Source: a virus
Taxonomy: Duplodnaviria > Heunggongvirae > Uroviricota > Caudoviricetes
IMG/VR virus record: IMGVR_UViG_3300028453_000025
DNA length: 6,905 nucleotides
Strand: one strand, 5' to 3'
Positions 5,502 to 6,905 of the stretch are shown here, one piece after another. A program made the position numbers and the translations under genes. Within the stretch, counting starts at the first letter, position 1. The number at the start of each line of letters is the position of its first letter. The notes beneath the pieces were generated by a model. The model was not told where the DNA came from, ran no database searches, and was given only the letters and a program-made list of their open reading frames with translations.

Positions 5502-5828
5502 TCATAACACCGTCGGACAACGCAAATCGTAAATCAGCACGGAAACAGAAAACGGCAGCTCCCCCTGAAGCAGTTCTTCCCGCTCCGCAAGATCCGGATT
5601 CCGGTACAGCATCCCGGTCAGCCGCATGGCAGCCCCCTTCATCCGGGTTAATGCCTCGCCCGGGATCAGTTCACCGTCCTCACGAATCACTTTATCCCGG
5701 CTGCCCTGAATGTAGGCCAGCAGCACGGCGGTAGCCTGACGAACCTTGTCCATCAGCATGTCATCATCCGCGTCATGGTCGACACGCAGATGTGCCTTGA
5801 TCTCTTCCAGTGTCAGTAATGCCGTCAT
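5502..5828 (-). CDS. gp6-like head-tail connector (adaptor) protein, 108 aa
   Basis: N-terminus MTALLTLEEIKAHLRVDHDADDDMLMDKVRQATAVLLAYIQ matches the hallmark of the gp6-like connector family (L-x-L-E-E-x-K-x-H-L-R-x-D, acidic run, then helix). ATG at 5828 overlaps the upstream repeat-protein stop (ATGA). Confidence 0.8.
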   Translation of the reverse strand: MTALLTLEEIKAHLRVDHDADDDMLMDKVRQATAVLLAYIQGSRDKVIREDGELIPGEALTRMKGAAMRLTGMLYRNPDLAEREELLQGELPFSVSVLIYDLRCPTVL

Positions 5829-6905
5829 TTTCCGCCTCCTGCATCCCGCCCACGTTTTGCAGCCAGGGTCCAGGCTGATGAATGAGCTTCTCCGGGTTTA
5901 TCACCGGTCATACTGTTGCAGTGCCACAGCGAGCCCCCCCATGTCACCGTATCGCCGGGGTGGTAGGTTTCACCGGCTCTGAACACACCGCGGTAGAGCA
6001 TCACCGGCAGGGAAAATGTTTTTTCCGTACGCTGACCGCTGCTCTGCCGGACCACCACAGAGAACAACCGTTCACCCGTCATACTGACGTCAATATCCGC
6101 CACCCCGTCAACCAGGCATTCCCATCCCCGCATCCCGTGCGTTTTTTCATACGCCCGCCAGAGTCCGCCCTGGTGTGTGGCATACGTGCCCCGGGGAAAG
6201 GATTTTTGATCGTCAATGGCGGGGTGTATTTCCAGTGCCGTGGCATCACGCCCGTCCTGCGGAGCCGGCAGGGCACTCACCGCATCCAGAACCGCCTTCT
6301 GCAGTACTTCCGGATCGTAGTCACGACCATCACGCGGAACAGGAATATGGCTTACCGCCTCCTTCACCATCTGCTCAATCATCGGACGCACATCATCGGG
6401 AGTAATACTTTTACCGTTCGCCGGTACCGGTATTTTCCCGACAGCATCATTCACCGCCTTCTGCAGAACATCGGGATCATAGTCACGACCGTCGCGCGGA
6501 ACAGGAATATGGCTTACCGCCTCCTTCACCATCTGCTCAATCATCGGACGCACATCATCGGGAGTAATACTTTTACCGTTCGCCGGTACCGGTATTTTCC
6601 CGACAGCATCATTCACCGCCTTCTGCAGAACATCGGGATCATAGTCACGACCGTCNNNNNNNNNNCCATCTGCTCAATCATCGGACGCACATCATCGGGA
6701 GTAATACTTTTACCGTTCGCCGGTACCGGTATTTTCCCGACAGCATCATTCACCGCCTTCTGCAGAACATCGGGATCATAGTCACGACCGTCACGCGGAA
6801 CAGGGATATGGCTTACCGCCTCCTTCACCATCTGCTCAAGCATCGGACGCACATCATCGCCCGTCACGCACTTCTGTAATACCACAGACAGGGAAGCCAG
6901 TTTTT
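5825..6905 (-). CDS. Hypothetical phage structural-module protein with tandem 54-aa repeats and a C-terminal roughly 135-aa non-repeat domain; 5'-partial, interrupted by assembly gap
   Basis: Minus-strand frame is open from the window edge (6905) to the gap; the track's M at 6885 and at 6616 are GTG codons internal to the repeat, not real starts. The 90-aa and 263-aa track ORFs are one gene: the frame break coincides with the N-run, and the repeat consensus shows 35 nt are missing where 10 N were placed (net 25 nt, i.e. +1 frame). Stop TGA at 5825..5827, translationally coupled to the connector gene. Confidence 0.7.
6295..6859 (-). repeat. Intragenic tandem DNA repeat, 162-bp period, about 3.5 copies as assembled, near-identical
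   Basis: The motif ccttctgcag recurs at 6295, 6457 and 6619 (162-bp spacing) and again at 6756 (137 bp, shortened by the gap). Copies 2 and 3 are identical over all resolvable bases; copy 1 differs only in its first 40 nt or so; copy 4 has three substitutions before diverging near 6860. Encodes VLQKAVNDAVGKIPVPANGKSITPDDVRPMIEQMVKEAVSHIPVPRDGRDYDPD, itself two 27-aa half-repeats built around I-P-V-P-x-(D/N)-G-(K/R). Confidence 0.9.
6656..6665. other. Assembly gap (N x10) inside the tandem repeat
   Basis: Ten consecutive N. Flanks align to the repeat unit with 35 nt unaccounted for, so the true gap is 35 nt or 35 + n x 162 nt. Confidence 0.95.

Follow-up and report, generated by a model that had tools for sequence, protein, structure and literature searches.

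A CBM5/12-like beta knob as the putative tip of a portal-linked fibre protein in tailed phages

We describe a C-terminal beta domain, the knob, on a conserved phage fibre protein that is encoded next to the portal and in some prophages fused to it, and we propose, at about even odds (a probability of roughly 0.5), that the knob is the distal binding and trimerizing tip of a fibrous virion protein tethered to the portal. The fibre protein, which we name X, corresponds to PHROG 1289 and is built from a long N-terminal alpha-helix, a variable stalk and the C-terminal knob. The knob itself is a real and widespread domain, and by its structural model it is a well-folded all-beta domain made from chitin-binding-type (CBM5/12-like) modules; the trimeric state of X, its anchoring to the portal, its binding role and its location are what we infer. 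The DNA analysed, called the window throughout, is a stretch of 6,905 nucleotides from a virus of the Caudoviricetes (IMG/VR record IMGVR_UViG_3300028453_000025).

Results

The knob and its gene

The knob follows a series of 54-aa repeats (Table 1), has the translation LEIHPAIDDQKSFPRGTYATHQGGLWRAY...AWTLAAKRGRDAGGGK, lies in the ORF 5825..6616(-), and corresponds to residues 726-861 of an 861-aa fused orthologue. The original prediction had placed a C-terminal non-repeat domain rich in Trp, Gly, His and Thr at the end of a repeat protein, and this holds: the domain is 136 aa long on the minus strand, every string quoted from it is present, and it contains 3.7% W, 14.0% G, 4.4% H and 8.1% T, where average E. 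coli proteins have roughly 1.5, 7.4, 2.3 and 5.4%. The stop codon of the fibre gene overlaps the ATG of the next gene (5828-5826) as ATGA, and this adaptor gene is translationally coupled to the fibre gene; orthologues of the adaptor are annotated 'head-tail connector protein' or 'head-tail adaptor Ad1'. An assembly gap within the repeats shifts the apparent reading frame, and the knob lies wholly downstream of it with its frame intact. On the far side of the gap the translation matches the orthologous protein of locus L001 from residue 522 onward. The gene runs past the window end at 6905, near residue 522 in the numbering of the 861-aa orthologue, and its N-terminal helix and portal junction fall beyond that end, so that the window copy may be either fused or split.

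Table 1. Coordinates of the features in the window, in order of position
Feature	Position	Strand	Basis
Next gene: gp6-like head-tail connector (adaptor), 108 aa	5502..5828	-	ORF; orthologous-locus annotation
Fibre-gene stop codon TGA	5825..5827	-	Sequence and ORF list
Knob (C-terminal non-repeat domain)	5828..6235	-	Translation, AF2 model, homologues, dN/dS
Module 2 of knob, residues 86-122, ..AGETYHPGDTVTWGGSLWHCNSMTGDKPGEAHSSAW	5870..5980	-	Pfam CBM_5_12 match
Central beta-hairpin sheet of knob, residues 45-80, between modules 1 and 2	5996..6103	-	AF2 model
Module 1 of knob, residues 12-44, SFPRGTYATHQGGLWRAYEKTHGMRGWECLVDG	6104..6202	-	Beta-hairpin module, CBM5/12-like sequence pattern
Last, degenerate half-repeat DPEVLQKAVLDAVSALPAPQDGRDATA, stalk-to-knob join	6236..6316	-	Translation
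Tandem 162-bp (54-aa) repeats, acidic stalk	6291..6655	-	TRF
10-N run, assembly gap inside repeat array	6657..6666	.	Sequence, translations
Upstream part of fibre gene (KLASLSVVLQKCVTGDDVRPMLEQM... and first repeat)	6667..6903	-	Translation

Fold of the knob and relationship to CBM5/12

AlphaFold (AF2) models the knob monomer as an ordered all-beta domain of 10 strands with a pLDDT of 90.8, and the best matches of this model among solved structures are CBM5/12 chitin-binding domains and phage tail-fibre modules. Structure prediction and a structural-similarity search had been suggested as the check on an expected small beta-rich domain of binding-module type, and their outcome agrees with that expectation, with neither disorder nor a clear match to a known scaffolding domain. 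A module of ~50 aa is all that is truly matched in the PDB, because the whole-domain Foldseek alignments have very high rmsd; Foldseek of the knob model returned no PDB match at E<=1e-3, and in BFVD it returned phage collagen-repeat, CBM5/12 and tail-fibre proteins at E down to 2e-8. Sequence searches of the PDB with the extension and the family profile gave marginal matches only, to Cis13 (7b5h, E 0.004) and a chitinase ChBD (2rts, E 0.22), and these searches found no solved relative of the whole knob or of the stalk.

The earlier view that the fold was unknown and the family unassignable has to be given up. Pfam CBM_5_12 (PF02839) scores 25.3 bits against the window knob (E 1.6e-5, residues 86-122), just missing the cut-off of 26.2; of 41 homologues, 35 match it at E<=0.01, the best at 1.4e-7. 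A PF02839 match is also precomputed for many knob homologues, and the knob has the small antiparallel beta fold (about 45-60 aa) expected of CBM5/12. Over its whole length the knob is homologous to PHROG 1289 and to the C-terminal part of PHROG 2271, with PHROG matches of the 136 aa at roughly E 1e-86 to 1e-95 (phrog_1289 8.6e-91, phrog_2271 6.3e-86, phrog_16748 1.1e-94). Besides CBM_5_12, no Pfam match was accepted in the X part of the window protein or of a full-length orthologue; sub-threshold matches to TetR_C_35, DUF2738, DUF4244 and FliG_N in the repeat and linker region were rejected as chance.

With CBM5/12 domains, represented by Serratia ChiB ChBD, Streptomyces griseus ChiC ChBD (2d49), Pyrococcus ChBD (2rts), Erwinia EGZ CBD (1aiw) and Bacillus ChiA1 ChBD (1ed7), the knob shares the pattern Y..GD.V...G..(Y/W)........P.....W. 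It differs from them in that its module lies inside a 136-aa two-module virion-fibre knob instead of being attached to a glycoside hydrolase, and in the residues that presumably bind sugar in CBM5/12, the exposed aromatic pair stacking on the polysaccharide. In a profile alignment to 2rts this canonical pair is absent from the knob: 'K-Y-W' of 2rts, containing the sugar-stacking 'YW', aligns with 'n-e-e' of the family profile (E-E in the consensus), which in the window is N107-S108-M109.

In the AF2 model, module 1 contains strands 18-21, 24-33 and 36-42, and the central sheet strands 45-52, 57-64 and 69-75. Module 2 is the most conserved part of the knob family. The homologue alignment shows G101, S102, W104, C106 and W122 to be invariant and R56 and Y81, in the central-sheet region, to be conserved; strong conservation extends to residues of surface type (R, K, D, H, T), as in 'DKPG' and 'AAKRGRDG'. 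Module 1 is missing in some homologues (P0092, P0097, P0101, P0103, P0112). Judged by sequence, the knob may comprise two related beta modules whose internal similarity is marginal (hhalign P 0.006, probability 6%), and because this duplication test is only marginal we do not claim a tandem CBM; the earlier description of the domain as having no repeat character is thus nearly, if not strictly, true.

A fibrous, length-variable stalk

The repeat array has a period of 162 bp, with 2.3 copies at 97% matches when counted by TRF on the knob side of the 10-N gap only, and each 54-aa repeat consists of two half-units of a helix followed by PxPxDG(R/K)(D/S). The stalk has a pI of 4.65. The array passes through the degenerate half-repeat '..LPAPQDGRDATA' into the knob, and the equivalent of this half-repeat, a 'P.P..DG.DA' segment, precedes the knob in all homologues. 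Stalk length is polymorphic, the copy number differing in 54-aa steps between prophages to give X proteins of 297, 405-407 or 461 aa, and this polymorphism leads to assembly gaps such as the one in the window.

The acidic 54-aa helix-PxPxDGxD repeats are the E. coli form of the stalk, which elsewhere is made of collagen G-X-Y repeats or a coiled coil. Standalone homologues of 185-550 aa run from an N-terminal helix through collagen or helix-PxP repeats to the knob, and the AF2 model of Salmonella X has helices at 3-44 and 57-70 and a beta domain at 104-212. Collagen matches were found in 12 of 41 homologues, and some homologues (P0101, P0103 and P0112) have a second collagen segment that continues after the knob; Pfam found no Collagen (PF01391) match and no G-X-Y repeats in the window protein. 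The stalk under the knob is very probably fibrous, with collagen repeats or a coiled coil replacing the 54-aa repeats in homologues, which supports the original placement of the knob at the distal end of a stalk. X is very probably trimeric as well, to judge only by analogy with the collagen repeats of homologues, the E. coli stalk being without G-X-Y.

Linkage of X to the portal

X belongs to a widespread HK97-like head module with the order TerL, protease/MCP (an S78 protease fused to the MCP), small ORF, portal, X and gp6-like adaptor. It lies between an HK97-type portal and the adaptor in the orthologous loci L001, L002 and L015, and the same portal-X-adaptor synteny is found in metagenome contigs, a Salmonella prophage, Salmonella phage FSL SP-016 and Rhizobium phage RHph_X2_26; in Caballeronia the X-adaptor side is seen, and the gap upstream of X contains no called portal gene. 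The linkage of the knob protein to the portal had escaped the original prediction.

In Stx-type siphophages of E. coli, X is either a separate gene or an in-frame fusion to the portal C-terminus. The fused alleles (phage 2851, WGPS6, YYZ-2008, L001) are 859-861 aa long, with X as the C-terminal 407 aa; in the E. coli orthologues a Phage_portal / TIGR01537 (PF04860) domain spans residues 45-388, where portal homology stops, X runs from Met455, and the knob itself has no portal match in Pfam or TIGR. In the split alleles (BP-4795, where X is ORF59, and three chromosomal prophages) the ATG of X overlaps the portal stop as ATGA, and X is translationally coupled to the portal. These calls come from eight loci inspected directly (fused, L001, L002, L018 and L019; split, L013, L015, L016 and L017), and 90-bp junction queries run genome-wide did not separate fused from split alleles cleanly, as cross-matches fell at 90-99% identity. 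Fusion to a portal occurs a second time, independently, in P0139 (1237 aa), which has about 25 repeats. The fused allele retains an ATG and, upstream of it, a G-rich Shine-Dalgarno-like run, so free X could still be made.

Annotation obscures this organization. PGAP flags many copies as 'frameshifted', and such copies are intact two-gene alleles with a layout identical to that of BP-4795. The NCBI name 'gp6-like head-tail connector protein' on Klebsiella homologues looks like a mislabel, because these copies are contig-end X fragments followed by a separate 108-aa gene that has no Pfam match.

Conservation and spread

The closest homologues of the knob match at E 1e-88, and cluster representatives number 5,452 at E<=1e-3 and 1,788 at E<=1e-10. 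A dN/dS of 0.14-0.23 against E. coli orthologues indicates purifying selection. The knob is conserved in phages of Escherichia, Salmonella, Klebsiella, Burkholderia-group and Rhizobium hosts and evolves no faster than the portal: across phages of unrelated hosts, knob identity (48-69%) tracks portal identity (43-68%). About 1,240 of 5,426 complete E. coli genomes carry the fibre gene, typically in several prophage copies (7,856 locations in E. coli), and carriers include Stx1-, Stx2a- and Stx2c-converting siphophages. Literature searches on X, covering portals with collagen-like or carbohydrate-binding parts, portal C-terminal extensions, Stx1/Sp15, BP-4795, FSL SP-016 and capsid-interior collagen-like proteins, found no report, and the paper with virion mass spectrometry on the fused-allele phage phi330, whose data are deposited in PRIDE as PXD061229, mentions the portal in neither its text nor its supplement.

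Discussion

What might a chitin-binding-type knob do at the end of a fibre joined to the portal? In the arrangement that we favour, the N-terminal helix of X would anchor at the C-terminal (crown) side of the portal, the stalk would act as a flexible spacer, and the knob would nucleate and register the X trimer while presenting a conserved binding surface. Because knob and portal evolve equally slowly and the canonical aromatic pair is absent, the knob is, as far as its sequence indicates, probably not a receptor binder that sets host range; because it is as conserved as the portal across unrelated hosts and is without the chitin-binding pair, its ligand is probably a conserved one, a phage component or a universal polymer, and not a strain-specific host receptor.

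The C-terminus points into the capsid in solved structures of HK97-type, P22, SPP1 and phi29 portals, and we tentatively suggest, at less than even odds, that X is an internal portal appendage, with four trimeric, length-variable fibres on the dodecameric portal crown, joined covalently in fused alleles, whose knobs bind a conserved internal partner. Such a partner could be, for example, packaged DNA or, while the prohead nucleates, the scaffold/protease part of the MCP. The relatives of the knob, by fold and by PHROG (phrog_5073, tail fibre), are external fibres, and these fit an outward-facing X better than a position on the portal crown. X might, with the knob as the displayed tip of the original prediction, be exposed at the head or neck like T4 fibritin whiskers or phi29 head fibres, the knob binding a glycan or cell surface for adsorption or environmental adherence: the fold puts the knob in one class with carbohydrate-binding modules and the knobs of tail fibres, external fibres typically have collagen or coiled-coil stalks, the 'tail fiber protein' phrog_5073 shares the CBM-plus-collagen part (E 1e-18), the gene adjoins that of a neck adaptor as T4 wac lies beside gp13/14, and free X could be translated from the ATG and Shine-Dalgarno-like run of the fused allele. 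We nevertheless regard external display as doubtful, since X is fused in frame to the portal C-terminus in 2851, WGPS6 and, independently, P0139, and known portal C-termini face inward; since a knob ~50-69% identical across diverse hosts, as slow to change as the portal, does not behave as receptor binders do; and since the exposed aromatic pair is replaced by N/S/M in the window or by E/E in the family consensus.

The knob might also have no ligand and serve, like the fibritin foldon or the non-collagenous trimerization domains of collagens, purely as a folding nucleus that registers the stalk chains, leaving the stalk or the N-terminal helix as the functional part of X. Its constant place C-terminal to collagen or repeat stalks, its invariant G, S, W, C and W, most plausibly core positions, the lost sugar-binding aromatics and the second collagen segment past the knob in some homologues all suit this idea, which we still judge improbable, given that 136 aa and two modules are large for a mere foldon, that surface-type residues are highly conserved too, and that binding and trimerization are compatible with each other. 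X is very unlikely to be an internal head protein that leaves the capsid during infection (in fused alleles once the prohead protease has cut it free), in the manner of the T7 core or of SPP1 gp7 and MuF cargo proteins, so that the knob could bind the glycan strands of periplasmic peptidoglycan. Like genes of the MuF/gp7 family (PMC5576092), that of X does directly follow the portal gene and in some cases is fused to it, and the same module holds an S78 protease fused to the MCP. Peptidoglycan is a conserved GlcNAc-containing polymer, and such a target would explain knob conservation across hosts. Against ejection, X shows no MuF domain and no Pfam match besides CBM_5_12, a folded trimeric knob is unlikely to pass a siphophage tail tube, and the chitin-binding aromatics are missing; moreover, we know of no cleavage site or processing evidence for X. 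Finally, the notion that the knob is not real, whether as a pseudogene in a decayed prophage, as an assembly artefact due to the N gap or as a shadow of a true plus-strand gene, is refuted: the frame is broken upstream by the gap, many copies carry 'frameshifted' flags, and a 299-aa antisense ORF (5882..6781, plus) exists, but the knob is in frame beyond the gap, has thousands of homologues under purifying selection and a high-confidence AF2 model, and the flagged copies are intact BP-4795-type two-gene alleles.

A portal-tethered X with a binding and trimerizing tip would have partial parallels in several known systems. CBM5/12-like beta modules occur in trimeric fibres of Pseudomonas phage Pa193 (gp47), Agrobacterium phage 7-7-1, Milano and the Anabaena contractile injection system (Cis13/All3316, PMC8894136, whose place we take to be equivalent to that of a tail fibre), and PHROG 5073 has the module and collagen segment common to standalone X proteins. 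These fibres are encoded in tail or baseplate modules and attached to baseplates, whereas the gene for X sits between those for the portal and the adaptor, and X can be covalently fused to the portal. T4 fibritin (wac), whose gene is adjacent to neck protein genes, is likewise fibrous, anchors by an N-terminal segment and ends in a folding or terminal domain, yet it is not portal-fused, and we found no sequence or fold match between it and X. The P22 portal barrel offers an analogy for a long C-terminal extension past the crown that starts with a long alpha-helix; this barrel, about 120 aa long, consists of one coiled coil of 12 helices and has neither repeats nor a globular domain at its end, whereas the X extension is about 300-780 aa, length-polymorphic, separable as a gene and capped by a beta knob. 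SPP1 gp7 binds the portal inside the capsid, and its MuF family is encoded directly downstream of the portal gene and has variable C-terminal extensions (PMC5576092). The likeness to X ends with that gene position, X being fibrous (collagen or repeats) with a beta knob instead of a globular MuF domain; no MuF domain (PF04233, PF06152 or related) was found in the window protein (Pfam E<=10) or the full-length orthologue (E<=1).

These results bear first on annotation, in which knob and stalk are labelled simply 'portal protein' and two-gene alleles, though intact, carry the flag of 'frameshifted' portal pseudogenes, so that intact prophage head modules are undercounted; the 54-aa repeat polymorphism could serve as a typing marker. 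Current models of the portal vertex do not explain a fibre that ends in a carbohydrate-binding-type knob and can be linked covalently to the C-terminus of the portal, and locating X would bring to light a new structure inside the portal vertex or else a route by which the portal can extend to the outside. If X is internal, it would add an internal structure of a new kind to the portal vertex, comparable in function to the P22 barrel, the T7 core and SPP1 gp7, built from fibre parts normally seen outside virions and shared by Shiga-toxin siphophages with thousands of phages related to them.

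The knob has a predicted CBM5/12-type fold

The knob of the fibre protein X is a genuine non-repeat C-terminal domain: its translation contains every string quoted in the original prediction, and the richness in W, G, H and T described there is present (3.7, 14.0, 4.4 and 8.1%). The small beta-rich domain that was expected also emerged from structure prediction and structural-similarity searching, as an AlphaFold2 model from a 41-sequence alignment is all-beta, with ten strands and a mean pLDDT of 90.8. Its fold, given as unknown in the original prediction, which could assign no family by eye, can be placed. 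Pfam CBM_5_12 matches 35 of the 41 aligned homologues, and knob residues 86-122 score 25.3 bits, just short of the 26.2 required. Foldseek comparison with the PDB is consistent with a CBM5/12-type fold at E never below 3e-3, with a very high whole-domain rmsd and true superposition limited to a module of about 50 aa. Among predicted viral structures the closest matches, with E down to 2e-8, come from phage proteins of the 'collagen triple helix repeat', CBM5/12 and tail-fibre types. A second, N-terminal module (knob residues 12-44) looks similar by eye to the CBM_5_12-matched one, with a marginal profile-profile P of 0.006.

Profile alignment with a Pyrococcus chitin-binding domain places the exposed aromatic pair 'YW' opposite non-aromatic residues of the knob, which thus has the fold class of CBM5/12 without its canonical sugar-binding signature. 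It is predicted to fold, and would work, like a CBM5/12 module, but without the pair it lacks a defining feature of that family, and we do not class it as a functional chitin-binding module. The knob is confidently predicted, from these models, to be a beta domain ending a repeat or collagen stalk.

Features of the window and of other loci (L-numbers)
Feature	Sequence	Coordinates	Strand	Remark
X ORF as called in window	window	5825..6616	-	ends at TGA 5825-5827
Knob	window	5828-6235	-	last 136 codons of X; LEIHPAIDDQKSFPRGTYATHQGGLWRAYEKTHGMRGWECLVDGVADIDVSMTGERLFSVVVRQSSGQRTEKTFSLPVMLYRGVFRAGETYHPGDTVTWGGSLWHCNSMTGDKPGEAHSSAWTLAAKRGRDAGGGK
gp6-like head-tail connector gene	window	5502-5828	-	next after X; ATG overlaps X stop (ATGA, 5825-5828)
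Tandem repeats, 162 bp (54 aa)	window	6291-6655	-	upstream of knob
Run of 10 N	window	6657-6666	.	assembly gap inside repeats; shifts apparent reading frame
Major tail protein	window	3575-4291	-	C-terminal Ig-like domain
Antisense ORF, 299 aa	window	5882-6781	+	overlaps X
ORF58/ORF59, split	L015 (phage BP-4795)	665-3411		ATGA overlap
'Frameshifted' portal	L013	2826-5410
'Frameshifted' portal	L016	1185-3769
'Frameshifted' portal	L017	1185-3439
Small ORF before portal	L001	10857-11078		overlaps portal start by 55 nt
Small ORF before portal	L003	5925-6185
Small ORF before portal	L004	6375-6644
Small ORF before portal	L007	4433-4630
Small ORF before portal	L011	2849-3016
Full-length ompC	L001	396-1559		between minor tail protein genes

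A fibre gene between portal and adaptor

Gene X resumes beyond the N gap and runs to the window end, its N-terminus lying outside; because the gap falls within the repeats and the gene runs off the window, it is hidden how many repeats this copy has. In the E. coli loci inspected, the length of X varies in steps of 54 aa, with values of 297, 405-407 and 461 aa (L001, L015, L017, L019), and its stalk is acidic (pI 4.65). Numerous 'partial' database entries break off within the repeats, and differences in repeat copy number between prophages are a likely cause of such assembly breaks. The antisense ORF is unsupported as a gene and seems to have arisen from the repeats together with the codon bias of the minus-strand gene.

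After the connector, the minus strand encodes head-closure, gp10-like, tail-completion, Ig-domain major tail, tail chaperone and tape-measure proteins, in the order of annotated orthologous loci. Record ON470597 names the major tail protein orthologue 'fibritin (wac) protein', which looks like a mis-annotation.

Of 5,426 complete E. coli genomes, 1,245 carry near-identical DNA (median 4 places each), as do 92 phage records, chiefly of Stx1a-, Stx2a- and Stx2c-converting siphophages; records named 'PPompW' are among the matches, and the L001 prophage carries a porin OmpC gene in its tail region. The closest complete copies are ORFs of 859-861 aa annotated 'phage portal protein'. Residues 45-388 are indeed an HK97-family portal (PF04860, E 7e-81; TIGR01537, E 1e-104; PDB portals 9lbn and 8cez), and the sequence beyond residue 454 is of another kind.

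A knob-only search of 1.84 billion cluster representatives returned 5,452 matches at E<=1e-3, and nearly all of those listed are proteins of 200-550 aa with the knob at the C-terminus. Standalone X proteins comprise an N-terminal helix, a variable stalk (collagen G-X-Y, helix-PxPxDGxD or helix-LPxPEP repeats, or a long coiled coil) and the knob; the AlphaFold2 model of a 220-aa Salmonella X has helices at 3-44 and 57-70 and a beta domain at 104-212. In five metagenomic homologues (P0101, P0103, P0104, P0112, P0117) a second collagen-like segment, ending in a conserved 'GRDLTQ(L/M)..DG.K(W/Y)', follows the knob, which is therefore internal.

Databases already list this family, but the names are misleading: PHROG 1289, the standalone X family, is labelled 'portal protein'. 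Proteins P0023-P0035 (Klebsiella, Enterobacter, Salmonella), named 'phage gp6-like head-tail connector protein, partial' by NCBI, are contig-end pieces of X (L009 and L010, 1-576), followed at the adaptor position by a separate 108-aa gene with no Pfam match; the name looks to have been transferred in error. We found no experimental or structural study of X in the searchable literature.

Fused and split alleles

Where context is available, X follows a portal of 450-490 aa and precedes a gp6-like adaptor, within the order TerL, protease/MCP, small ORF, portal, X, adaptor. Portal-X-adaptor recurs in two JGI metagenome contigs, Salmonella phage FSL SP-016, Rhizobium phage RHph_X2_26 and a Salmonella prophage in which the X start overlaps the portal stop; in a Caballeronia prophage X precedes the adaptor, with no portal gene called upstream. 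The small ORF (55-89 aa) is conserved in all loci with this head module, and neither Pfam nor NCBIfam gives a match for it.

Eight clear E. coli loci divide into four fused and four split, and both forms occur in one strain. In BP-4795, ORF58 (portal, 454 aa) overlaps ORF59 (X, 461 aa), whereas phages 2851, WGPS6 and YYZ-2008 and locus L001 have the two in frame, Met455 ('MTERELSII') being the X start codon. Fused alleles retain this ATG and a G-rich run upstream, which may allow free X to be produced as well. The copy in the window shares 98.4% identity with a fused one and stops short of the portal/X junction. P0139 (1237 aa) is an independent portal fusion with about 25 repeats of 27 aa. 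PGAP/RefSeq merges the split alleles on E. coli chromosomes (L013, L016, L017) into one pseudogene, 'phage portal protein, frameshifted'; both genes are probably intact, since their layout is identical to that of ORF58/ORF59. X is tightly linked genetically to portal and adaptor, by fusion or apparent translational coupling, and the ATGA overlaps, including portal/X in split alleles, suggest coupled translation of all three.

What the fibre might do

Where does such a fibre sit, and what might it bind? We give roughly even odds (about 0.5) to a portal-tethered protein whose knob both binds and trimerizes. X would be a trimer, because 12 of 41 homologues have collagen repeats, which form only from three chains, and the knob may serve as trimerization nucleus and binding surface together, at the end of an acidic stalk acting as a spacer of uncritical length; a pure folding nucleus without a ligand is improbable. 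The N-terminal helix would dock at the portal C-terminal tail, a Rosetta-stone argument from the fused alleles of phages 2851, reportedly an infectious transducing phage, and WGPS6. The isolate most similar to WGPS6, phi330, is an infectious siphophage (PMC12502783).

The knob is under purifying selection against E. coli orthologues (dN/dS 0.14-0.23); against Salmonella copies dN is about 0.28, with synonymous sites saturated. Over the same phage pairs, knob identity (48-69%) equals that of the portal (43-68%), across phages of unrelated hosts. A strain-specific receptor is an unlikely ligand, because the sequence facing the ligand shows no diversification with the host, and a conserved partner is more likely. 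An artefact or pseudogene has almost no probability left, refuted by the homologue searches, purifying dN/dS, confident model and intact two-gene alleles.

Solved portals of the HK97 type and of SPP1, P22 and phi29 have their C-terminus towards the inside of the capsid, which argues for an internal portal-crown appendage, and within the portal-tethered reading we lean slightly towards an interior location. Against this, the building blocks of X (collagen, a CBM-like knob, homology to tail-fibre PHROG 5073) are those known from external fibres, and the start codon kept in fused alleles, from which unfused X might arise, also speaks against it. The glycan-binding external fibre originally envisaged is rather unlikely. 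Ejected cargo that binds peptidoglycan is highly improbable. X resembles tail-fibre knobs and T4 fibritin without being a member of either; it is alike to SPP1 gp7/MuF in gene position only, a Pfam search finding no MuF domain in X, and, like the P22 portal barrel, it can be a C-terminal portal extension, again without membership.

Variation in the number of 54-aa repeats is a possible typing marker, and X would be of greater interest if its interior location proves true.
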